Positions 8,010-26,361 of a DNA stretch of 64,000 nt are shown here, one piece after another. Under the pieces are notes generated by a model. The model made no database searches. It was given only the letters and a program-made list of their open reading frames with translations, and had not been told where the DNA came from. The stretch spans positions 1-64,000 of the forward strand of contig JBGAIQ010000006.1 of NCBI GenBank assembly GCA_044225365.1, written 5' to 3'. The stretch is from Planctomycetota bacterium. Lineage in GTDB: Bacteria > Planctomycetota > B15-G4 > JADJEK01. The position numbers were made by a program, and so were the translations under genes. Positions within the stretch are counted from its first letter, which is position 1; each line of letters starts with the position of its first letter.

Positions 8010-8708
8010 TCAGCGCGAGGCGCTCTCCCGCAATCGATACCCCACTCCAGGCTCGGTGACGATGTACTTCGGACGCGACGGGTCGGGCTCGAGCTTGTGA
8101 CGCAGATTGCTCACGTTGACCCGCAGCAAATGGACTTCGCCCTCATTGCCGCGACCCCAGACGGCGCGCAGCAGGTGGCCGTGCGTCAGGACCTTCCCCA
8201 CGTTCTTCACCATCTCCTTCAGGATGTCGTATTCGGTCGGCGTGAGTTGGATCTCGGCGCCATCCCGAGTCACGATTCGCTTCGTGACGTCGACGATCAG
8301 GCCATCGGCCTCGAATACGACCGATCCCTCCGGCCGGCTCGCCCGGCGCAGGGAGGCGCGCACCCGCGCGAGCAGTTCGCCCGTCGCGAAGGGTTTCGTC
8401 ACGTAGTCGTCGGCGCCGGCATCGAGGGCGCGAATCTTGTCGTCCTCGCGCTCGCGCACCGAGAGCACGAGGATCGGTATGCCGGTCCATTCGCGCATTC
8501 GCCGCGTCACCTCGAACCCGTCGATGTCGGGCAGGCCGAGATCCAGGATGACGGCGTCGGGCCGGCAGGCCATCGCCTGAGCGACGGCTTCCTCGCCCGT
8601 CGTCGCTTCGAACACGGCGAAGCCGTTCGCCGCGAGCGAGGTCCGCAGGAACGTGCGGATCGCGCGCTCGTCGTCGACGATGAGGATGCGAGGTCCGTCG
8701 CCACTCAT
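8010..8708 (-). CDS. kdpE: Response regulator KdpE (OmpR family)
   Basis: ATG at 8708 (ATGA overlap with kdpD): ILIVDDE, ILDLGLPDIDG, ALDAGADDYVTKPF, LTPTEY, LRHKLEPDPSRPKYIVTEPGVGYR. Confidence 0.95.
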   Translation of the reverse strand: MSGDGPRILIVDDERAIRTFLRTSLAANGFAVFEATTGEEAVAQAMACRPDAVILDLGLPDIDGFEVTRRMREWTGIPILVLSVREREDDKIRALDAGADDYVTKPFATGELLARVRASLRRASRPEGSVVFEADGLIVDVTKRIVTRDGAEIQLTPTEYDILKEMVKNVGKVLTHGHLLRAVWGRGNEGEVHLLRVNVSNLRHKLEPDPSRPKYIVTEPGVGYRLRESASR

Positions 8709-11377
8709 GGTCTCGCGCTCCCACGTCGCGGAATCGTGATGGAGACGAGCGTACCGCCACCCTCGCGGTTCCTCGCCGCGATCGTCCCGCCATGCGCGGC
8801 CACGATCGCGCGACTGATCGAGAGGCCGAGTCCCGTGCCCTGCGCCGCGTTCGAACGCTCCACGCGATGGAACTTGTCGAACACGCGCTCGAGCTCGCTC
8901 GCGGGGATTCCGATCCCGCGATCGCCCACTTCGATCACGATCGAATCGGCGACTGTCCGCACCGCGATCTCGATCGAGGCTTCCGGGGGCGAGTATTTGT
9001 GCGCGTTCACCACGACGTTGACGAGCGCCTGGCACATGAGCACGAAGTCGAGCTCGACGAACGGAAGCTCGTTCGCGACGTCGACGACCACTCTGCGATC
9101 ATGCAGTTCGGTTGCGAGTTGCTCGAGGGCGGAACCCACGAGATCCTGCAGGTCGCAGGACGATCGCTTCAGCTCGAGCGCGCCGGCCTGCAGGCGCGAC
9201 ATGTCGAGGAGATTGCCGAGCAGCCGATTGAGGCGCGTCGCGTTGCCCGCCGCGGTCTCGACGAGTTGGCGCCGTGACTTCTCGTCGAGGAGTTCGAAGT
9301 CGTCGCGCAGGCTCGTGAGTGCGCCGGTGATCGAGGCGAGCGGAGTGCGCAGATCGTGCGATACCGAGTCGAGGAGCGCCGTCTGCACTCGTTCGCGCTC
9401 GCGCAGCGACTGCGCGTGAGCGGCGGTTTCTGCGAGCCGAAACCGCTCGATCGCCGAGGCGGCCTGACCGGCGAACGACTGCAGGAGTCGCTGCTCTTCG
9501 AGCGCGAGAGCGCCATCGGGGCGGAACAGACTGATCGCGCCGTAGGCTCGATCGCCCGAGAGCATCGGAACGAGCAGCGATCGCACGCCGGTCAGCGTCT
9601 CCGTCCCTTTTCCCGCGGGCTGCGCGTGGTCGAAGACCCACTGCGCAACGGCCTTCTCGAAGACCTGCGTCGGGAAGGGCGCGCTCTTGGCGTGCAGCTC
9701 GACGCTCCTGTCGTTCGCGAGCCATACGGCGACGTTCTCGTGGAAGGTCGATTCGACCTGTTCGACGATCGTCCGCACGACGTCGTCGAGGTCCGCCGCC
9801 GCCGCGAGCGCACGGTTGCATTCGTAGAGCGCCGCGGTGTGCGCTTCGCGTCGCATCGCAGCGAGACTCTGTGCACGCGACGCCGATGCCAGCCGGCTCG
9901 TGATCAGGGCGACGATCATGAACGCGATGAACGTGACGACGTACTGAGCATCGTCGACCGCGAACGTCAGATACGGCGGCACGAGGAAGAAGTCGAAGGC
10001 GAGGACGCTCGCGAGGGCGATCAAGATCGCGCTGCGCCTCTGGGCACGCAGCGAAACGAGCACGACCACGACGAGGTAACCCATCAGAAGATTGACGGGC
10101 GCGAAATAGTCGCGCAGGAAGATCCCCGCGATCGTCACGATGGCGACCATCGCGAGTCCCGGAAGGAGGTCGCGAAGGAGGATGCCGGGCTCCGGAGCTT
10201 CGTCCCTCGCTCGTGCCGGTGGCGATGCGGCACCCTCGCTGTTGATCACGTACACGTCGATCTCGCCGCTGCCACGAACGACCCGATCGACCACCGCTCC
10301 CTGGAGGAGTTCACGCCAACGCGACCGCAGTGGCTTGCCGACGACGATCTTCGTGACGTTCTGCTCGCGTGCGTAATCGACGAGCGCCTTCGCAACGTCC
10401 TCGCCGTGGATCGTGCGCGCTCGTCCGCCGAGCTCTTCGGCGAGGCGCAATGTGGCCGCGATGCGGTCGCGATCGGCGTCGCGCAGCCGACCCGAATCGG
10501 GAGTCTCGACGTGGACCGCGTGCCACTCGGCATGGATCGAACCCGCGAGGCGCTTCGTGCTGCGGACGAGACGCTCCGAGAGCGGACTCGGACTCACGCA
10601 GACGAGAACTCGTTCGCGCGCGGCCCACGGCCCCTCGATCGCGTGCGTGCGCATGTAGCCGCGCACCTGCTCGTCCACGCGGTCGGCCGCGCGACGCAGT
10701 GCGAGTTCGCGCAGCGCGGAGAGATTGCCCTCGCGGAAGAAGCCGGTCGCCGCACGACTCGCCTGCTCCTTGCCGTAGATCTTGCCCGCGCCGAGGCGTT
10801 CGAGCAGTTCGAGGATCGGCAAGTCGATCAGTTCGATGTCGTTCGCTTCGTCGAGGACGCGATCGGGCAACGTCTCGCGCACCACCACGCCCGTGATCTG
10901 CGCGACGACGTCGTTGAGACTCTCGAGATGCTGCACGTTGAGGGTGGTGAAGACATCGATGCCGGCGTCGAGCAGTTCCTCGACATCCTGCCAGCGCTTC
11001 GCGTGTCGTGAGCCCGTGGCGTTGGTGTGGGCGAGCTCGTCGACGAGCGCGAGTTGCGGATGGCGCTTCAAGATCGCGTCGAGATCCATTTCCTCGAGCG
11101 CGATCCCACCGTGCTTCATCGAGCGCCGCGCAACGACGGGCAGGCCTTCGAGGAGCGCGTCGGTCTCGGGTCGCCCGTGGGCCTCGACGTAGCCGACGAC
11201 GACATCGGTCCCTGCGTCGTGGAGGCGCTTCGCCGCGCGCAGCATCGCGTACGTCTTGCCGACGCCCGCCGCGAATCCGAGGAAGACCTTGAGCTTGCCG
11301 CGCTTCGCCCGCGCTTCGTCGCGCGAGACCTGCGCGAGCAACAGGTCGGGATCCGGGCGAGCGTCGTCGTCGTTCAT
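8705..11377 (-). CDS. kdpD: Sensor histidine kinase KdpD
   Basis: Start MNDDDARPDPD; GKLKVFLGFAAGVGKTYAML, LVDELAHTN, Usp domain, 4 TM (FDFFLVPPY), GAF, SHDLRTPL H-box, GTGLGLSI. Confidence 0.97.
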   Translation of the reverse strand: MNDDDARPDPDLLLAQVSRDEARAKRGKLKVFLGFAAGVGKTYAMLRAAKRLHDAGTDVVVGYVEAHGRPETDALLEGLPVVARRSMKHGGIALEEMDLDAILKRHPQLALVDELAHTNATGSRHAKRWQDVEELLDAGIDVFTTLNVQHLESLNDVVAQITGVVVRETLPDRVLDEANDIELIDLPILELLERLGAGKIYGKEQASRAATGFFREGNLSALRELALRRAADRVDEQVRGYMRTHAIEGPWAARERVLVCVSPSPLSERLVRSTKRLAGSIHAEWHAVHVETPDSGRLRDADRDRIAATLRLAEELGGRARTIHGEDVAKALVDYAREQNVTKIVVGKPLRSRWRELLQGAVVDRVVRGSGEIDVYVINSEGAASPPARARDEAPEPGILLRDLLPGLAMVAIVTIAGIFLRDYFAPVNLLMGYLVVVVLVSLRAQRRSAILIALASVLAFDFFLVPPYLTFAVDDAQYVVTFIAFMIVALITSRLASASRAQSLAAMRREAHTAALYECNRALAAAADLDDVVRTIVEQVESTFHENVAVWLANDRSVELHAKSAPFPTQVFEKAVAQWVFDHAQPAGKGTETLTGVRSLLVPMLSGDRAYGAISLFRPDGALALEEQRLLQSFAGQAASAIERFRLAETAAHAQSLRERERVQTALLDSVSHDLRTPLASITGALTSLRDDFELLDEKSRRQLVETAAGNATRLNRLLGNLLDMSRLQAGALELKRSSCDLQDLVGSALEQLATELHDRRVVVDVANELPFVELDFVLMCQALVNVVVNAHKYSPPEASIEIAVRTVADSIVIEVGDRGIGIPASELERVFDKFHRVERSNAAQGTGLGLSISRAIVAAHGGTIAARNREGGGTLVSITIPRRGSARP

Positions 11378-11412
11378 CGCGATGAAGGGTCTCGCACGGG
11401 CGAGGAGAGGGA

Positions 11413-12870
11413 CTACGAAACGATACGCGGTTTCACGTACACGAACCAACGACTCTCGCGGTCCGCCGTCGTCGTGCGGCGGAAGAGAGCCCCCATCCAC
11501 GGGATATCGCGGAGCAAGAAGATGCCGTCCTCCACCTCGACCTGCGTCTTCCGCTCGAAGCTGCCGATCAGATACTCGGTCCCCGGCTTCAGATGGAGGG
11601 TGCTGTGAGAGTTGCGCGAAGTGACGTTCGGGACGCGGCCCGAACGGTCGAATCCCACCATGCTGTTCACCGTCACGGCGATATCGGCCGTGATCGATTC
11701 GGCGCAGATGAACGGACGGATCGATAGATCGAAGCCCTCGAACACGTTCGGATCCAACACGCTCTCGACGTGAGTGTCGCCCGGCTCGCCGGCACGCGAT
11801 ACGACCTTCTCGAAGGGAAGGATGCGGCCGTCGTGCAGCACCGCGGGCGACGCGGTGGCCTCGCTCCTCGCGCCGCCGGAGAGCGCACCCGGGTTGTCTT
11901 CGGCGTTGACCGAGAGCAGCTTCGCCCGCGTCGTGATCTTCGCGTCGCCCTGCCCCACCATGTAGTTCAGGAATTCGGCGAGAACCGAAGCCTCGAGGCC
12001 GACGATGCTATCGACCGTCGCCTTCTTCCCGTCGCCCGACGATTCGTGCAATGTGAAGGTTCCGGAAATGGCGCGCTTCCACGCATCGAAGTCGAGCCCG
12101 ACGTCCTCGAAGTGATCCTGATCGACCTCGTAGATCGTGACCTCGAATTCCGCCTGTAGTGGCGGACGGTCGAAGGACTCGAGTGCCGAGAGGTCGTCGG
12201 CGATGTCGGAAGGGTTCTCCGAGATGTAGATCGTGTTCAGCGACGGATCGGCGAACGGCGCGTAGTAGAACTGCCCGATGTTTCCGAGCTCGGTGCCGGC
12301 GAGGATCGCCTTCAGCTCGCCCGCGGTGCGATGCTTGCCGACGTAGGCCGTGCAGCCGCTCTTTCCCGCCGCGTTGCCATTGCTCGTGCCGTCGTAGAAC
12401 GCGAATCCCTTGACGTCGACGCGGGCGATCATCTCGTCGATACCGGGGATCATGAAGTCGGGCGCGGTGACGAAGAGGTACTGCACGGGATTGCCGTCGG
12501 CGTCCTTCAGATCCTGCTTGCCCATCACCTCCGCGATTCCGCCTTCGTATACCAGCGAGCGCAAGAGGTAGCTCTGGACGTCGATCGCATTCGTGTTGTG
12601 GATCGCGTAGGTCTTGAGGACGTAGTCGTTCTTCGCCATCCCCGGCGTCGTGCCGCCGCTCGTGCCGTTCGGATTTGGATTGCGCGGTCGGCCGTCCTCG
12701 ACCCGCCGGACCAAGAGATCACGGAGATCGTTCGCATCGCGGCTGCTCTCCCCTCCCGCGATGTTCACCCTCACCGCCGGGTCGTCTCTTTCGGATCCTC
12801 CATTCGCGACACCGAAGAACGACATCAGAACGAGGCTCATCGCCAAGCGCGATCGATTCGCGGAGTTCAT
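11413..12870 (-). CDS. Secretin-family (GspD/PilQ-like) outer-membrane protein inside the kdp operon
   Basis: Signal peptide; N3-like segment ADPSLNTIYI..LESFDRPPLQAEFEVTIYEV..GLDF; C-terminal signature GIFLLRDIPWMGALFRRTT..WFVYVKPRIV; ATGA overlap with kdpC stop. Confidence 0.85.
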   Translation of the reverse strand: MNSANRSRLAMSLVLMSFFGVANGGSERDDPAVRVNIAGGESSRDANDLRDLLVRRVEDGRPRNPNPNGTSGGTTPGMAKNDYVLKTYAIHNTNAIDVQSYLLRSLVYEGGIAEVMGKQDLKDADGNPVQYLFVTAPDFMIPGIDEMIARVDVKGFAFYDGTSNGNAAGKSGCTAYVGKHRTAGELKAILAGTELGNIGQFYYAPFADPSLNTIYISENPSDIADDLSALESFDRPPLQAEFEVTIYEVDQDHFEDVGLDFDAWKRAISGTFTLHESSGDGKKATVDSIVGLEASVLAEFLNYMVGQGDAKITTRAKLLSVNAEDNPGALSGGARSEATASPAVLHDGRILPFEKVVSRAGEPGDTHVESVLDPNVFEGFDLSIRPFICAESITADIAVTVNSMVGFDRSGRVPNVTSRNSHSTLHLKPGTEYLIGSFERKTQVEVEDGIFLLRDIPWMGALFRRTTTADRESRWFVYVKPRIVS

Positions 12871-13448
12871 TTCATCTCCTTCGCGGAGTTCGCCGCAGCG
12901 ATCACATCGCGATTCAGTTGGAGCACGTTCACTCTTTGCTCGCCGAGGAGCCCGAATGTGCGGCCCTGGGTGTGACGATCGATCATCGCGCCGACCTCGC
13001 CGCGGTCGATTCCGTTCTCGCGAGCGACGCGCGCTGCCTGATACCTCGCCGCAGCGACGCTGATGTCGGGGTCGATACCGCTGCCCGACGCCGTCACGAG
13101 ATCGACGGGGATCGGGGCATCGTTCCCGGGATCGGCCTCGCGCAATGCCTTCACACGTGCTGCCACGCGATCGAGCATCGCACCTTGGAGCGGACCTGCG
13201 TTGGACCCGGAGGACGGCGTGGCTCCATACGCGCTCGCCGAGGGCCGGCTCCAGAACAGGTTCTTCGCGTCGAACGACTGACCGATCCGCTCCGAGCCGA
13301 CGATGCGATCGCCGTCCTTCAGGAGACTGCCCCCCGAGCGGAATGGGAACGCGAGGTTCGCGATGCCGGTGACCGCGAGCGGGTACACGACGCCCGTGAG
13401 CAATGTGAGGACGAGGAGCAGGACGATGGCGGGACGTAGGTGGTGCAT
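12867..13448 (-). CDS. kdpC: K+-transporting ATPase subunit C
   Basis: Start MHHLRPAI; GVVYPLAVTG, GSERIGQSF, FWSRPSA, SSGSN, PVDLVTASGSGIDPDIS, RVNVLQLN. Confidence 0.96.
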   Translation of the reverse strand: MHHLRPAIVLLLVLTLLTGVVYPLAVTGIANLAFPFRSGGSLLKDGDRIVGSERIGQSFDAKNLFWSRPSASAYGATPSSGSNAGPLQGAMLDRVAARVKALREADPGNDAPIPVDLVTASGSGIDPDISVAAARYQAARVARENGIDRGEVGAMIDRHTQGRTFGLLGEQRVNVLQLNRDVIAAANSAKEMK

Positions 13449-13462
13449 GGAAGTTCCTCGCT

Positions 13463-15547
13463 TCAGACGAAGTGGCTCGCGATCAGATCGATCAGCTTGA
13501 TCCCGACGAACGGCGCCAGGAGGCCGCCGACGCCGTAGATCAGCAAGTTCTCGCGCAGGAGCTGCGACGCGCTCTTCGCCTTGTACGGCACGCCGCGTAA
13601 TGCGAGCGGGACGAGCGCGACGATGACGAGCGCGTTGAAGATGACGGCGGAGAGGATCGCGCTCTGCGGCGACGCGAGGCCCATGACGTTCCACACCCGC
13701 AGTTGCGGCCAGGTGGTGACGAACGCCGCGGGCAGGATCGCGAAGTACTTCGCGACGTCGTTCGCGATGCTGAAAGTCGTGAGCGCCCCCCGCGTCATGA
13801 GCATCTGCTTGCCGACCTCGACGATCTCGAGCAGCTTCGTCGGATTGCTGTCGAGGTCGACCATGTTCGCCGCCTCGCGCGCGGCCTGTGTGCCCGTGTT
13901 CATCGCGACGGCCACGTCGGCCTGAGCGAGCGCGGGCGCGTCGTTCGTGCCGTCGCCGGTCATCGCGACGAGATTCCCCTTCGACTGGTAGCTGCGGATG
14001 AGCGCGAGTTTGGTCTCGGGGCGCGCCTCGGCGAGGAAGTCGTCGACTCCCGCCTCTGCGGCGATCGCGGCGGCCGTGAGCGCGTTGTCACCCGTGATCA
14101 TCACGGTCTTGATGCCCATCTTGCGCAATTCGACGAATCGCTCGCGAATGCCGCCCTTCACGATGTCCTTCAAGTGAACGACGCCCTGGATCCTGTCGTT
14201 GCGCGACACGACGAGCGGCGTGCCGCCCGAGCGCGCGACCTGCTCGATGGTGCGCGAGAGGTCCGGCGGAATCGTTCCGCCCAAGCTCGTCACGAAGGCC
14301 TGGACGGCGTCGCCCGCGCCCTTGCGGATCTGCTCCTTGCCGAAGTCGACGCCGCTCATCCGTGTCTGCGCCGTGAACTTCAGGAACTTCGCGTCGCGCA
14401 GCGTCTCGCCGCCGATCGATTCGCCGCGCAGACCGTGCTTGTCCTTCGCAAGGACGACGATGCTGCGACCCTCCGGCGTCTCGTCCGAGAGCGAGGCGAG
14501 CTGCGCAGTTTCCGCGAGATCACGCTCGGCCACTCCAAGGAGCGGGAGGAACGCGACGGCCTGCCGATTCCCGAGCGTGATCGTTCCCGTCTTGTCGAGG
14601 AGCAACGTGTCGACGTCGCCCGCGGCTTCGACCGCACGTCCCGAGGTCGCGATGACGTTGCGGCGGATCATTCGGTCCATGCCCGCGATTCCGATCGCGC
14701 TGAGCAATCCGCCGATCGTCGTCGGGATGAGGCAGACGAGGAGCGCGACCAGAGTGACGAGCGACACCACGACGCCCTTGCCCGCGAGTTCGACCCCGTA
14801 CATCGAGAACGGCAGGAGCGTCGCGCAGACGAACAGGAAGACGATCGTGAACGCGACGAGGAGGATGAGGAGCGCGATCTCGTTCGGGGTCTTCTGGCGC
14901 TTCGCGCCTTCGACGAGCGCGATCATCCGATCGAGGAAACCGGCGCCCGGATCGTTCGTCACCTCCACCATCAACCAATCGGAGAGGACGACCGTTCCGC
15001 CCGTGACGGCGCTTCGATCGCCACCGGCCTCGCGAATCACGGGAGCACTTTCGCCAGTGACCGCGCTCTCGTTCACCGATGCGGCGCCTTCGATCACCTC
15101 GCCGTCGGCCGGGATCGTCTCGCCCGCTTCCACGAGCACGACATCGTGCTTCTTCAGATCGGCGCTCGAGACCCGCTCGACCTTCGCATCGCGACGCCGA
15201 CTCGAAAGCCGCTTCGCCTGCGTGTCCCGCCGCGTGCGACGCAGCGTGTCCGCCTGCGCGCGGCCGCGACTCTCCGCGATCGCTTCCGCGAAGTTCGCGA
15301 AGAGAACGGTGAGCCACAGCCAGGCGATGATCTGCGCCCGGAACGCGTTGCTCTCGCCTTCCGTCGCCGGTTCGACGAAGGCTGCGATCGTGAGCAGGAC
15401 GCTTGCCACGGTGACGACGAAGAACACCGGGTTCTTCACGAGAAGTCGTGGATCGAGTTTCACGAAGGACTGTGCGATGGCGTCGCGCAGGACGCGACCT
15501 CGCGGCGTGACGACGTTCTTCGAATGCGTGCTTCTTGAAGTGTTCAT
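13463..15547 (-). CDS. kdpB: K+-transporting P-type ATPase subunit B
   Basis: [19 protein letters not shown] phosphorylation site, [18 protein letters not shown]. Confidence 0.98.
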
Positions 15548-15559
15548 GGCGTTGTTGGC

Positions 15560-17323
15560 TCAGAACCGGGAGATCGAACCGACGAGCAGATGCTCGACGA
15601 ACGGACCGAGTGCGAGAGCGGGGAGGAAGCTGAGGGCGCCCATGATCACGACGACGGCGACGAGCCAGAAGATGAACAGGGCCGAATGCGTCGGCAGCGT
15701 CCCCGGACCCGCAGGGACGGTCTTCTTCCGCGCGAGCGAACCGGCGATCGCGAGCATGAACGCGATCGGGGCGAAGCGCTCGATCGCCATCACGATGGCC
15801 CCGACGACGTTGTAGAACGGGCGACTGGTGTCGAGTCCGACGAACGCGCTGCCGTTGTTGCCGCCTTGCGAAGTGAAGGCGTAGAGGATCTCGGAGAACG
15901 CGTGCGGACCGCCGTTGCCGACCGCCGCCTTCGCGGAAGGCGTGAGCACGGCCGCGGCCGTGCCGAGCAGCATCACCATCGTCGGAACGAGGACGGTGAG
16001 CGTCGCCATCTTCATCTCGAACGTCTCGATCTTCTTGCCGAAGATCTCGGGCGTGCGGCCGACCATGAGGCCCGCGGCGAACACGCCGAGGATGGCGAAC
16101 GCGAGCAATCCGTAGAGACCGCTGCCGACGCCGCCGAAGACGATCTCGCCGAGCTGCATCAGGAAGAACAGCGGGACGGTCGACATCGGCATGTAGGCGT
16201 CGTGCATCGAGTTCACCGAGCCGTTCGAGGCCGCGGTCGTCGACACGGCCCACAGCGCCGAATTCACGACGCCGAAGCGGACCTCCTTGCCTTCCATGTT
16301 CCCGCCGGATTGATCGTGATTCGCGTGGGAGTCGACTCCCATCGCGGAGAGAGCGGGGTTGCCTTCCTGCTCGAAGTGGGAGGTGACGTAGATGCACGGC
16401 GCGAACAGGATCCACATCACGAGCAACAGCGCGACGCCCTGCCTGCGATCGCCGATGAGGATTCCGAACGTGTAGCAGAGCGACGACGCCAGGAGCAGGA
16501 TCGAGAGCATCTCGAGGAAGTTGGTGAGCGGATTCGGATTCTCGAACGGGTGCGCCGAGTTCACTCCGAAGAAGCCGCCGCCGTTGGTGCCGAGTTGCTT
16601 GATCGCGATCTGGGACGCCGCGGGCCCGAGCGGGATCGTCTGCGTCGTGACCGCGTCGCTTCCTCCCGCCACCGCGACTTGCGGTTGGACGAGCTGCGCA
16701 TTCACCGAAGGACGCATGGCCTGCACCACGCCCTGCGACGAGAGCGCGAGCGCGAGCACCAGCGAGAGCGGCAGCAGGACGTACACTGTTCCGCGGGTGA
16801 GATCGACCCAGAAGTTCCCGAGGGCCTCTTTCTCGCGGACTTGGATTCCGCGAGCGAGCGCGACGAGGACCGCGATTCCGGTCGCCGCGGAGACGAAGTT
16901 CTGAACCGTGAGTCCCACCATCTGCGTGAAGTGGCTCGCCGCGGCTTCGCCGGAATAGTTCTGCCAGTTGGTGTTCGTGACGAACGAGATCGCGGTATTG
17001 AACGCGAGGTCCCACTTCATCGGGCCGATGCCGTCGGGATTCCAGAGAGGAAGCACGCCCTGGAAGATCAGGAGCCCGAACAGTACGACGAAGCCGACGG
17101 CGTTGAACGCGAGGAGCGAGAGAAGGTAGTCCTTGAAGCGCATCTCGGTCTTTGCAGCGTCGCCCGCCGTGCGCAAGACGAGTCGCTCGACGGGGCCGAG
17201 GAGCGGATGCAGGAACGTTCGCTCCCCGCGAAACACCCGCGCCATGAACTTCCCGAGCGGCGGCGAGAGCGCGATCAGGACGACGCAGAACGCGACGATT
17301 TGGAGTCCGTCGATCGCGTTCAT
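15560..17323 (-). CDS. kdpA: K+-transporting ATPase subunit A
   Basis: SFVTNTNWQNYSGE, KQLGTNGGGFF, NMEGKEVRFG, SNGSVN, GRTPE, NNGSAF. Confidence 0.98.
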   Translation of the reverse strand: MNAIDGLQIVAFCVVLIALSPPLGKFMARVFRGERTFLHPLLGPVERLVLRTAGDAAKTEMRFKDYLLSLLAFNAVGFVVLFGLLIFQGVLPLWNPDGIGPMKWDLAFNTAISFVTNTNWQNYSGEAAASHFTQMVGLTVQNFVSAATGIAVLVALARGIQVREKEALGNFWVDLTRGTVYVLLPLSLVLALALSSQGVVQAMRPSVNAQLVQPQVAVAGGSDAVTTQTIPLGPAASQIAIKQLGTNGGGFFGVNSAHPFENPNPLTNFLEMLSILLLASSLCYTFGILIGDRRQGVALLLVMWILFAPCIYVTSHFEQEGNPALSAMGVDSHANHDQSGGNMEGKEVRFGVVNSALWAVSTTAASNGSVNSMHDAYMPMSTVPLFFLMQLGEIVFGGVGSGLYGLLAFAILGVFAAGLMVGRTPEIFGKKIETFEMKMATLTVLVPTMVMLLGTAAAVLTPSAKAAVGNGGPHAFSEILYAFTSQGGNNGSAFVGLDTSRPFYNVVGAIVMAIERFAPIAFMLAIAGSLARKKTVPAGPGTLPTHSALFIFWLVAVVVIMGALSFLPALALGPFVEHLLVGSISRF

Positions 17324-17324
17324 C

Positions 17325-17405
17325 TCAGAACCTCTCCGGCCGCACCATCGCGACGACGAGGTAGACGAACAACAGGACTGCGACGACTCCCGCGACGACG
17401 ATCAT
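17325..17405 (-). CDS. kdpF: K+-transporting ATPase subunit F (26 aa)
   Basis: Below ORF-track cutoff; hand translation MIVVAGVVAVLLFVYLVVAMVRPERF*, with GGAGG RBS upstream and 1 bp gap to the kdpA ATG. Confidence 0.93.
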   Translation of the reverse strand: MIVVAGVVAVLLFVYLVVAMVRPERF

Positions 17406-17437: not shown

Positions 17438-17470
17438 ACGATAGGTCGAACCGCATCAATGCGGCGTCAA
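17438..17470 (-). promoter_or_regulatory. Putative kdp promoter with KdpE-type direct-repeat box
   Basis: Minus strand reads TTGACG-N5-TTGATG (11-bp period), then 10 bp, then TATCGT (-10-like); this is OmpR/PhoB-family box geometry, directly upstream of kdpF. Confidence 0.6.
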
Positions 17471-23235: not shown

Positions 23236-26200
23236 GTGATGGGAGTTCCGGCCTCGATGGATCTGCATTCGGTCTCGGTGCCACCGATCGATGGCGAGCA
23301 GGCGCAGGCGATCGCACGCCGCGTCTACGGAGTCGTGGCGCAGGCGTCGCCGCTCCCCGGTGAATACGACGCCAACTTCCTGCTCGTTCACGACGACGCC
23401 ACCCGCTCCGTGCTCAAGATCATGCACCCGCGCCGCGAGGCGGCGTTCGTCGACTTGCAATGCATGGCCCTCGAACGCGCCGTCGAGCGCGATCGAGGAC
23501 TCGGCCTGCAACGAGTCATGCGGACCTTGCGCGGCAATCGGTTCGAGAGCACGCCATTGCAGAACGGCGATGCGCGCCTCGTGTTTCGCCTCGAGTACAT
23601 CGATGGCGCGACGCTCGCAGAGACGCGACCTCGCAGCGAGGCCCTCCTCGAGTCGCTCGGGGAGATGCTTGGGCGAATCGATTCCGCACTCGCCGACTTC
23701 GCGCACCCGGCCGCCTTTCGCGGCGAGTTCAAGTGGGACCTGATGAACGCGGCGTGGATCTCCGCGCGGCTCGACGCGATCACGGACTTGGGCCAACGAT
23801 CACTCGTCGAACGCGCGATCGCGCAATACCACGAATTCGTCACGCCGATCGCCGCGCGCCTGCGAAGGAGCGTGATCCACAACGACGCCAACGACTACAA
23901 CGTCCTCGTCGACTCGCCGCGGGCGAGGTCTCCGCGCGCGCGAACCGTCATCGATTGGGGCGATTGCGTGCACACCGCAACGGTTTGCGAACTCGCGATC
24001 GCCGCGGCCTACGCGATGCTCGATTCGGACCACGTGCGCGCTCCCGATCCGCTCGTCGTCCTATCGAGCCTGACCCGCGCCTATCATCGCGCCTTGCCGC
24101 TCCTCGACCTCGAACTCGCGGCGCTCTTCCCGCTCGTGACGATGCGCCTCGCGGTGAGCGTCGTCAATTCGGCGCTCTCCAAGTCGGCAAAGCCGGGTGA
24201 CCCCTACGTCACGATCAGCGAGCGGCCGGCCTGGGACGCACTCGCGCGGCTCGCGACGATCCATCCGCGATTTGCGCACTACGTGACGCGCGACGCCTGC
24301 GGGCTCGATGCGCACCCGGACTCGAAGCGAGTCACGGCGTGGCTCGAACGCAGCGGACCGTTCGCCTCTCCGCTACCGTTCGACCCGAAGCACGACCGAT
24401 TCGAGGTCCTCGACCTCTCGTTCGGGAGCACCTTCCTCGGGAGCAACCCCGCGAGCTACGACGCCGCCGTCCTCGAGCCGAAATTGGAGTCGTTCCTCGC
24501 GGAGCGGAAGGCTGCCGTCGGCGTCGGTCGCTACGACGAACCGCGCCCCATCTACACCGTGCCCATGTTCGCGCTCGGCGAGCATCCCACCGCGGAGCAT
24601 CGCACGGTCCATCTCGGCCTCGATCTCTTCGCTCCCGCGGGCACGGAGGTGCGCGCCCCGCTCGATGGCGTCGTGCACGCGATCGCACGCAACGATGCGC
24701 CGCAGGACTATGGTCCCGTCCTCCTGTTGCGGCACGTTACGGCGGAGGGCATCCCGTTCTTCACGCTGTACGGGCACCTGGGGATCGATGTCGTCACTCG
24801 CTTGCGCGTCGGCCAACGCGTCGAGCGCGGGGAGCGAATCGCATCCATCGGCGCGAGGGACGTCAACGGCGGTTGGCCCCCGCACCTCCACTTGCAGATC
24901 CTCCTCGACCCGCTCCAGCTCGATACCAACTTCCCCGGTGTTGCGACTCCCCGACTGCGAAGCGTTTGGACGAGTCTCTGCCCGGATCCGAATCTGCTGG
25001 TCGGGATTCCGTCGAACGCGTTTCCGCGTCCCACGCCCACGGTCGAAGAACTGAGCGCTCGCCGGCGCGCCGCCCTCGGCGGCAATCTCAGCGTGAGCTA
25101 CGAGCGCCCCCTCCACATCGTGCGCGGCTTCCGTCAGTACCTCTACGACGCCGAGGGTCGCGCGTATCTCGACGTCTACAACAACGTCCCCCTCGTCGGG
25201 CACTCGCACCCGCGAGTCGTGCGCGCCGCGCAGGATCAACTCGGGCTGCTCAACACCAACACGCGTTATCTCCACCCCCGCATCATCGAATACGCCGAAC
25301 GCCTCACGGCGAAGATGCCATCGCCATTACGAGTGTGCTTCGTCCTCAACTCCGCGAGCGAGGCGAACGAACTCGCGTTGCGGCTCGCTCGCGCGCACAC
25401 GCGGGCGCGCGATGTCGTCGTCCTCGAACACGCCTATCACGGGCACACGACGTCGCTCATCGAGATCAGCCCGTACAAGTTCGACGGACCCGGCGGCGCG
25501 GGCAGAGCGGAATGGGTGCATGTGGCCCCGATCCCCGACGACTATCGCGGTCGCCATCGCCGCGGCGAATTGCGACTCGGCGCGCGATACGCAGAGCACG
25601 TGCGCGAGATCCTGGCGACCGCGAACGAAGACGGCCGGCGCATCGCGGCGTTCATCGCCGAAACAATGCCGAGCGTCGGGGGTCAGATCGTATTGCCCGA
25701 CGGCTACCTCGAAGCGGTCTACGCACACGTCCGCCGCGCGGGCGGCGTGTGCATCGCCGACGAGGTGCAGGTCGGATTCGGCCGACTCGGCGTCGCCTTC
25801 TTCGGTTTCGAGACCCAGAACGTGGTTCCCGACATCGTCGTGCTCGGCAAGCCGATCGGAAACGGATTCCCGCTCGCGGCCGTCGTCACGACCGACGAGA
25901 TCGCGAGGTCGTTCGCGAACGGCATGGAGTTCTTCTCGACCTTCGGCGGGAATCCCGTCGCCTGCGCGGCCGGACTCGCGGTGCTCGACGTGCTCGAGGA
26001 CGAGTCGCTCCAGGCGAACGCATTGCGCGTCGGGGACGAGCTGAAGACGCTCCTCGTCGACCTGGCGGCCCGTCACGAACTCATCGGAGACGTCCGCGGA
26101 CTCGGACTCTTCCTCGGCATCGAGCTGGTTCGGGATCGAAGGACGAGGGAACCTGCTTCTGAAGAGGCAAGCTACGTCGTGAATCGTTTGCGCGACCTCG

Positions 26201-26361
26201 GCATCCTCGCGGGCACCGACGGCCCCCACCACAACGTGATCAAGATCCGCCCGCCTTTGGTGTTCACTTCCCAGGACGCGCGATTCTTCGCGAGCACGCT
26301 CGACGAAATCCTGGGCGAGAACGCCGTCACTTCGCCGTGCTCGGCGCCATCTCGTCGATGA
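23236..26361 (+). CDS. Tri-domain fusion: APH-like (hydroxylysine kinase-type) phosphotransferase, M23 peptidase, class III PLP aminotransferase/phospho-lyase
   Basis: IHNDANDYN and IDWGD; HLGLD and PPHLHLQ; [43 protein letters not shown]. Start may be 23257. Confidence 0.88.

Follow-up and report, generated by a model that had tools for sequence, protein, structure and literature searches.

A secretin-superfamily gene inside the kdp operon of a Planctomycetota bacterium is a candidate outer-membrane channel gene of the Kdp potassium-uptake system

The 64,000-nucleotide (nt) stretch of DNA analyzed here (the window; positions 1 to 64,000 of contig JBGAIQ010000006.1, assembly GCA_044225365.1, from a Planctomycetota bacterium) carries a kdp potassium-uptake operon, in which a 485-amino-acid (aa) open reading frame (ORF; 11413-12870, minus strand) is located between kdpC and kdpD. 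Analysis of this ORF showed that its product belongs to the secretin superfamily and occupies a genomic setting that is new and a functional one that probably is. Homology and fold, gene order, conserved linkage to kdp, co-occurrence with kdp, a shared operator motif, and the presence of porins in the corresponding slot of other operons are direct observations. On balance, we consider it somewhat probable that the secretin is a machinery-independent outer-membrane channel that is co-induced with Kdp and aids K+ uptake. The components of this proposal that we infer are KdpE binding, K+-dependent expression, ring assembly, channel activity, and ion preference.

The product (P0001; 11413..12870, minus strand) was assigned as a Kdp-linked secretin by Pfam, profile comparison, structure modeling, and Foldseek. 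The Pfam Secretin model (PF00263; cut-off 27.5 bits) matched residues 341-484 with 57.8 bits. A profile built from 32 family members matched 23 distinct solved secretin sequences, the best being ExeD (6i1x, 2.8e-21), which aligned from the N3 domain to the end of the barrel (positions 207-491). The AlphaFold2 model has a mean predicted local distance difference test score (pLDDT) of 68.8, with values of 74-90 over most of the barrel. In a Foldseek search of the PDB, all 40 matches at E<=0.001 were secretins (best 3.6e-16), including PulD, GspD, ExeD, XcpQ, InvG, PilQ, pIV, RcpA, and BfpB. The template modeling scores (TM-scores) were low, at 0.2-0.35, since the ring conformation is not retained in a model of the monomer. 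A first-pass annotation, made from the sequence alone, had already identified the gene as a secretin, and both the Pfam match above its cut-off and the fold matches agree with it; the strings that it quoted (LRDIPWMGALFR, VKPRIV, SENPSDIADDLSALESFD, and EVDQDHFEDVGLDFD) are all found in the translation. Scores against the curated NCBIfam subfamily models were far below the cut-offs: 57.4 bits versus 238.45 for SctC (TIGR02516), 52.6 versus 351.35 for GspD (TIGR02517), 51.6 versus 284.35 for PilQ (TIGR02515), 31 versus 250 for MshL, and 16-22 versus 554-598 for the HofQ models. Judged by these sequence scores, the protein belongs to the secretin superfamily but to none of its named functional subfamilies.

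The overall architecture of P0001 is small. Residues 1-24 (12799..12870, minus strand, as for all features of the protein) form a signal-peptide-like N-terminus, MNSANRSRLAMSLVLMSFFGVANG, with a model helix at residues 7-19; it contains no cysteine, and the protein is therefore not a lipoprotein. Residues 25-82 (12625..12798) form a low-confidence linker (pLDDT <50 for residues 15-79). In a 14-member clade, the linker residues Asp51, Leu53, Arg55, Pro65, Pro67, Asn68, and Gly69 are invariant, as are Gly73, Thr75, Pro76, Gly77, Lys80, Asn81, and Tyr83, and a linker insert (PRNPNPNG..TPG; 11 residues when counted as PNPNG...TPG) is specific to this clade and absent in the sister clade. This conserved, clade-specific linker motif might serve in regulation or docking. 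Residues 83-151 (12418..12624) form the first ring-building periplasmic domain, with a beta-alpha-beta-beta-alpha order in the model secondary structure, and residues 173-238 (12157..12354) form a probable N3-type domain, the model placing a second beta-alpha-beta-beta-alpha domain at residues 173-233, ahead of the barrel hairpins. The ExeD N3 alignment and the ring-building fold in the model agree with the N3-like segment proposed in the first-pass annotation, but the Secretin_N model (PF03958; residues 186-239) reached only 17 bits, below its cut-off of 28.2. Residues 239-485 (11416..12156) constitute the secretin domain, as defined by PF00263 and Foldseek, and no S domain follows. Consistent with the earlier remark that the S-domain tail is missing, only 1 residue lies beyond the Pfam Secretin domain, the shortest such extension in the genome (11-167 residues in the 12 other secretins). 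At E<=0.01, no Pfam family of the N0, STN, or AMIN type matched the protein. In the secretin domain, the amphipathic helical loop motif IFLLRDIPWMGALF spans residues ~450-463, with a model helix at 460-463, and the pattern G-I/V-P-x-L-x-D-I-P-x-L-G-x-L-F is matched by GIFLLRDIPWMGALF. Located before the last strand, GIFLLRDIPWMGALF is what we take to be the amphipathic helical loop in both name and role. Across the 32 sequences, Leu453, Pro457, and Phe463 are invariant, and Leu462 is nearly so.

Pfam analysis of the flanking ORFs, together with direct reading of the sequence, gave the operon order kdpF-A-B-C-secretin-kdpD-E, with all genes on the minus strand. The first gene, kdpF (17325..17405), was read directly from the sequence; it encodes 26 aa, MIVVAGVVAVLLFVYLVVAMVRPERF, and its stop lies 1 nt before the ATG of kdpA (15560..17323; Pfam KdpA, 755.6 bits). 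It is followed by kdpB (13463..15547; Pfam E1-E2_ATPase and Hydrolase), encoding the P-type ATPase subunit, and kdpC (12867..13448; Pfam KdpC, 220 bits), encoding 193 aa from the ATG at 13448, a start chosen by alignment with 17 orthologs. The secretin start and the kdpC stop overlap in an ATGA (12870-12867), with a Shine-Dalgarno sequence AAGGAG (12876..12881) 5 nt before the secretin ATG, within the end of kdpC. The secretin stop codon TAG (11415-11413) is separated by 35 nt from the kdpD ATG at 11377. The sensor kinase gene kdpD (8705..11377) matched Pfam KdpD (317 bits), Usp, DUF4118, GAF, HisKA, and HATPase_c, and the kdpE-type (OmpR-type) response regulator gene (8010..8710, start not fixed) matched Response_reg and Trans_reg_C, with a tblastn match at 8013-8705. 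The gene length, the ATGA overlap, and the 35-bp spacing given in the first-pass annotation were thus all found in the sequence. No terminator-like site was detected on the operon strand between 7800 and 17700, and a sigma-70 consensus scan of the operon returned 0 promoter-like sites, a consensus that is uninformative for this phylum. The guanine-cytosine (GC) fractions at the three codon positions are 0.60/0.44/0.85 in the secretin gene versus 0.62/0.44/0.89 in kdpA. Both secretin junctions are bridged by contigs of three other studies at ~94-97% identity (X3 record 11, 10970-12462; X3 record 12, 12439-13664; X5 record 26, 11271-11543; X4 record 21, 12752-12945). Because independent contigs bridge the junctions, the arrangement is not an assembly artifact. 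Codon-position GC, the bridging contigs, and the lack of a terminator-like site together show that the gene is neither a recent insertion nor an artifact.

The family to which P0001 belongs is rare. A word-indexed search returned 33 proteins including the query (362-522 aa, 42-100% identity) plus two distant ones, and an exhaustive search of 1.84 billion cluster representatives returned 1311 matches at E<=0.001, of which 14 were at E<=1e-30. In a 39-row tree, P0001 falls in a clade of 12 members (15 with P0012-P0014) with a support of 99 in the Shimodaira-Hasegawa-like approximate likelihood ratio test (SH-aLRT). Its sister clade has 20 members (support 87), mostly from Sumerlaeota together with second copies in the same Phycisphaeraceae metagenome-assembled genomes (MAGs), and beyond it lies a pair, one member of which is labeled Poribacteria. 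We found 12 genome loci, and the three at 57-65% identity (L011-L013) all adjoin a full kdp set. L013 has the gene order of the window, with ATGA overlaps at both junctions, while in L011 and L012 the secretin gene is divergent from kdpFABCDE and lies upstream of kdpF and kdpA. All clade members with a known context (4/4) are therefore kdp-linked, in two gene orders and within one clade (99% support). The eight tree rows without kdp all fall in the sister clade, and none of the flanks of 10 sister-clade loci contained Kdp genes (0/10; upstream flanks of 3.8-8 kb in all ten, downstream flanks of <1 kb in five). A scan of metagenome contigs added one locus, L034, which belongs to the sister clade and has no kdp. 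The first-pass annotation had named recurrence beside kdp as a test of its proposal, and close homologs in type II secretion system (T2SS) or pilus loci as evidence that would contradict it. The tie to kdp is conserved in 4/4 clade members of known context and is not unique to this assembly; all three closest genomic relatives adjoin kdp.

Presence of the gene also follows that of kdp. The GTDB class of the window genome comprises 42 genomes, and its taxonomic family comprises 12. Within this family, KdpA occurs only in the window genome (G000) and in G022, G023, and G029, and the secretin ortholog (58-65% identity) occurs in exactly these four. In the other eight genomes (70-95% complete), neither KdpA nor a secretin ortholog was found. 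As the genomes are close kin and the counts small, we give no statistic for this pattern. Among 401 sampled genomes of the phylum, 5 had a secretin match at E<=1e-40 and 44 had KdpC.

Comparison of the upstream regions revealed a motif shared by kdp and secretin genes. A direct repeat, TTGAYR-N5-TTGAKR, is common to the sequences upstream of kdp in the window and in L011-L013, and CCTA(T/G) lies ~10 nt beyond it. In the window, the putative KdpE operator TTGACG-N5-TTGATG (17454..17470, minus strand) ends ~50 nt before the kdpF ATG, and a -10-like element, CCTAT (17445-17441, minus strand), lies 3' of it. The core TTGA-N7-TTGA has one match in the 64-kb window, in the kdp promoter (0.43 expected by chance), and one in L013, upstream of kdpF. 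L011 contains three, all in the 300-nt divergent intergenic region (0.07 expected; 0/200 shuffles reached three), and L012 contains four matches to the relaxed form YTGA-N7-YTGA, all likewise in the divergent intergenic region (0/200 shuffles reached four). Two of the boxes in L011, and likewise two in L012, are oriented toward the secretin gene with a spacing of 32 nt. The nearer one stops 54 nt short of the secretin ATG, with CCTAG after it, an arrangement that mirrors the one at kdp. One secretin-side box of L011, TTGATGCCGCATTGATG, differs by one base from the kdp box of the window. No correctly oriented box was found before the sister-clade genes.

The same box is found at kdp loci beyond these relatives. 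In 39 planctomycete kdp loci, 20 boxes lie in 17.4 kb upstream of kdpA versus 7 in the other 629 kb, an enrichment of ~100-fold; the box is present in 14/39 loci, four of them from near-identical genomes. Besides the window, we observed it upstream of kdpA in L035, L039, L046, L048, L054, L058-L060, L063, and L071, and in the kdp promoters of several Planctomycetota families it often occurs as two copies 32 nt apart. According to PMC3264566, the Escherichia coli KdpE site consists of the 6-bp direct repeats TTTATA and TTTACA, 5 bp apart, with the first two T residues invariant across genera; the planctomycete box has the same 6+5+6 geometry as the site described there. The TTGAnn-N5-TTGAnn box is thus a putative KdpE operator and a candidate operator of this kind phylum-wide, and the divergent secretin genes of L011 and L012 would accordingly be predicted members of the Kdp regulon.

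To place the gene in a wider context, we mapped 42 further planctomycete kdp loci by tblastn, 40 of which were evaluable for what follows kdpC. In 34/40, kdpD or its N-terminal half begins <=300 nt after kdpC. Three of the 40 carry a BBP2/OmpL-like porin in the kdpC-kdpD slot (L036, 92 bits; L045, 236 bits; L050, 206 bits), and one, L051, carries a Gcw_chp/TorF-type putative porin. The earlier statement that some kdp operons contain a porin-like gene therefore holds for 4/40 of these planctomycete loci. In L078 (1/40), a 1-kb gap without a same-strand ORF of >=120 aa follows kdpC. No BBP2 match was obtained in the genome of the window, and the control genomes gave none either. The position expected of a kdp-operon outer-membrane channel is occupied in the window and L013, where the secretin gene lies in the slot, while in L011 and L012 the gene has boxes of its own. 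Other variations of the kdp loci were also observed. The slot of L044 (5989-6987, minus strand; 1/40) holds a membrane-anchored Ser/Thr protein kinase gene instead of an outer-membrane protein gene. The order is kdpB-kdpA-kdpC in L074 and L077 and kdpA-kdpC-kdpB in L078. KdpD matches fall in two pieces, an N-terminal sensor and a C-terminal kinase, in L037, L039, L056, L062, L064-L066, and L072, and the gap or other DNA between the pieces suggests split kdpD genes.

Survey of the secretion machinery indicated that none is encoded near the gene. The 6.5-Mb genome contains 13 Secretin, 16 T2SSE, 16 T2SSF, and 26 prepilin (N_methyl) matches, and none of the T2SSE (0/16), T2SSF (0/16), or prepilin (0/26) matches lies on the 177-kb contig of which the window is part. 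The absence of a secretion ATPase, pilin, or platform gene, reported earlier for the neighborhood, therefore extends to this whole contig. Six secretins lie within ~20 kb of an ATPase gene (contigs C51, C73, C95, C33, C103, and C76), and seven, the kdp-linked one included, lie farther away. Two tandem pairs are among the latter (C40, 223-232 kb; C90, 104-107 kb). Eight of the genome's own ATPases, used as tblastn queries, had no match in the window and matched only one of the 13 family loci, the sister-clade locus L021, where the weak match was an MshEN/T2SSE-like gene at a distance of 4.3 kb. In a Pfam scan of 72 neighboring ORFs, no secretion or pilus family was present among the 25 of 90 families listed.

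Several findings weigh against a channel that acts independently and in aid of K+ uptake, the first of them concerning machinery and ancestry. ATPase/platform loci without a local secretin are present at C95 (397-402 kb) and on C100, C22, C84, and C71, and such loci could in principle use an unlinked secretin. In the KdpB tree, FastTree did not group the four linked cases, and the approximately unbiased (AU) test did not reject a single clade of the four (p = 0.655), the constrained tree being even better. The four linked cases may therefore go back to one recruitment, and the independent evidence amounts to one origin, one rearrangement that kept the adjacency, and a presence/absence pattern among close kin. 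Moreover, the genomic context is known for 4 of the 12-15 clade members. These findings would suit a conventional secretin of a pilus or T2SS whose machine is encoded at another place in the genome, the position in kdp being a historical accident inherited by a few relatives. The 16 T2SSE matches, loci such as C95 (397-402 kb) without a nearby secretin, the possible single event behind the four linked cases, and the MshEN/T2SSE-like gene 4.3 kb from the secretin in L021 all speak for this explanation. We nevertheless regard it as unlikely: P0001 scores far under every curated subfamily model and lacks the N0/STN/AMIN domain through which secretins couple to the inner-membrane platform; the kdp adjacency outlasted a rearrangement, and the divergent copies carry kdp-type boxes; within the taxonomic family, the gene occurs only in kdp-bearing genomes, and the machines have twelve other secretins to draw on.

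Further findings that weigh against K+ uptake concern the slot, the charge, and the gate. In 34/40 operons the slot is empty of outer-membrane genes, and a channel of this kind is therefore not a general requirement. In solved secretins the gate is closed, and a machine is normally needed to open it. No sequence feature of a permanently open or K+-selective pore was found in P0001. Gate loops predicted for the kdp clade are approximately neutral (averages -0.2 and +1.9), and overall acidity is common to the sister clade and to the other secretins of the genome: the net charge of the mature protein is -13 to -25 in the kdp clade and -9 to -27 in the sister clade, and that of the secretin domain is -12 in P0001, with 0 to -15 in the other 12 secretins. 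The first-pass annotation had taken acidic stretches as compatible with a cation preference. We rejected acidic charge as a clue to selectivity, since it is non-specific, the sister clade (not kdp-linked) being equally acidic; the gate loops are near neutral, and the charge falls within the range of the genome. The protein might then be a Kdp-co-induced channel for something other than K+ (general permeability, osmotic relief, or another solute) or a pore-less structural protein of the envelope. A negative charge that is family-wide rather than specific to the kdp clade, the absence of a selectivity feature among those sought, and the unrelated contexts of the sister clade, next to genes for an ATP-binding cassette (ABC) ATPase (L019 and L022), a glycosyltransferase, Hsp90, or a hydrolase, fit such a role. 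The strict co-occurrence with kdp and the analogy to the porins point instead to the substrate of the pump itself, and we consider this alternative improbable.

An export function was also considered. To our knowledge, every characterized secretin exports, and any stress-induced function would agree with a link to the kdp regulon; the protein could thus be an export pore, co-induced with Kdp, that releases a macromolecule or polymer under K+ limitation or osmotic stress, for example to mobilize K+ or remodel the envelope. Against this, no gene for a substrate, ATPase, pseudopilin, or pilotin is conserved beside the secretin in the window and L011-L013. The only conserved neighbors are kdp genes, and the matching slot elsewhere holds diffusion porins, not export parts. 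An export pore is therefore very unlikely in our judgment.

The proposed K+-uptake channel would operate as follows. P0001, a minimal secretin composed of a putative signal peptide, a linker, one N-type ring domain, a probable N3 domain, and the barrel, without N0, AMIN, and S domains, would work without any pilus or secretion machine. It would be made together with KdpFABC when KdpD/KdpE senses K+ limitation, through co-transcription and translational coupling inside kdpFABC-secretin-kdpDE in the window and L013, and in L011 and L012 from a promoter of its own that carries kdp operator copies. In the outer membrane, the protein would assemble as a secretin ring; through the aperture of this ring at rest, or through a weakly closing gate, K+ (or small cations generally) may enter the periplasm faster, which would supply the high-affinity inner-membrane pump when flux across the outer membrane is limiting. 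The secretin would thus do the job presumed for the beta-barrel porins in the kdpC-kdpD slot of other Planctomycetota. A physically joined, trans-envelope K+ uptake system, as put forward in the first-pass annotation, fares unevenly: a secretin homolog without machinery and a conserved tie to kdp stand, and nothing supports physical joining. When KdpC (18-row alignment) and secretin residues 21-240 (14-row alignment) were modeled as a complex, the score was 0.00, which is silent on docking.

Beyond kdp, the neighborhoods of the wider family are diverse. The flanks of the sister clade revealed no conserved partner, the neighbors varying among an ABC ATPase/exporter (4 loci), a glycosyltransferase, Hsp90, a hydrolase, and a cellulase. 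In two Sumerlaeota MAGs (L019, 5671-7486; L022, 3926-7478), the sister-clade secretin gene comes immediately after an ABC ATPase gene of the same orientation; a gene for a Yip1/GYF-domain membrane protein lies upstream in L019, and a similar gene was found in L022 by blastp. By gene order, these two loci may represent another transporter-secretin pairing. The nearest paralog of P0001 in the same genome (31% identity, 523 aa; contig C15; L079, 6525-14417) is located between a methyl-accepting chemotaxis protein gene and the genes of two ~765-aa proteins with CarboxypepD_reg-like repeats, and no transporter adjoins it. Elsewhere in the window, a 1041-aa ORF (23236-26361, plus strand) encodes an unusual three-part fusion of an APH-type phosphotransferase, a Peptidase_M23 domain, and a class-III aminotransferase.

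So far as we are aware, secretins are export gates that open only for a pilus, phage, or secretion piston, and the nearest known case to import through a secretin is DNA uptake via the pilus secretin. A secretin family without machine-coupling domains but with kdp linkage, a kdp operator, and a place in the porin slot would represent a new use of the fold, as a regulated diffusion or uptake channel. More tentatively, and with less confidence than we place in the channel proposal above, no earlier secretin may have served by itself as a pore for nutrient uptake, the role that P0001 would have as a ring under KdpE control admitting K+ for the Kdp pump. Planctomycetota and their relatives, which carry many secretin paralogs, may more widely have turned orphan secretins into regulated outer-membrane channels that replace porins. 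The question bears on small-solute uptake in Planctomycetota, a phylum with poorly known outer-membrane porins, and on whether K+ supply is limited by the outer membrane at the micromolar levels at which Kdp operates. With a family this small and proteins that should be expressible, the idea is open to direct tests. The literature, as far as it was available, yielded neither a report of a secretin gene within or next to a kdp operon or regulon nor one of an orphan bacterial secretin.

Comparison of P0001 with known systems places it closest to GspD, PulD, and ExeD (6hcg, 5wq7, and 6i1x), its best sequence-profile and fold matches, with which it shares a probable N3 domain, a double-walled barrel, and the amphipathic helical loop. 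Unlike them, P0001 has no N0, N1-N2 pair, or S domain, is accompanied by neither a pilotin nor gsp genes, and is encoded in a K+ uptake operon. Like P0001, pIV (7ofh), HofQ, and RcpA (8odn) are small, with few periplasmic domains and no S domain, and pIV gave the best TM-score normalized by target length (0.57). These proteins use a phage, competence, or Tad machine and an N0-type first domain, whereas P0001 has neither nearby. Leaky-gate mutants of pIV reportedly admit maltodextrins and antibiotics into E. coli, which indicates that a secretin ring can be an uptake pore. The kdp-operon porins (BBP2/OmpL-like and TorF-like) resemble the secretin in being outer-membrane genes in the same slot that are presumed to raise K+ entry, but they are monomeric or trimeric beta-barrels, and the secretin would be a multimeric ring of an entirely different fold and assembly; the literature, available in part, yielded nothing that demonstrates the function of the kdp porins themselves. 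Compared with the kdp system of E. coli (PMC3264566 for the operator), the window has the same kdpFABC...kdpDE order and an operator of two 6-bp repeats that start with TT and lie 5 bp apart, with the half-sites TTGACG/TTGATG here versus TTTATA/TTTACA in E. coli. What the planctomycete loci possess beyond E. coli kdp is an extra outer-membrane gene, located inside the operon or under a duplicated operator.

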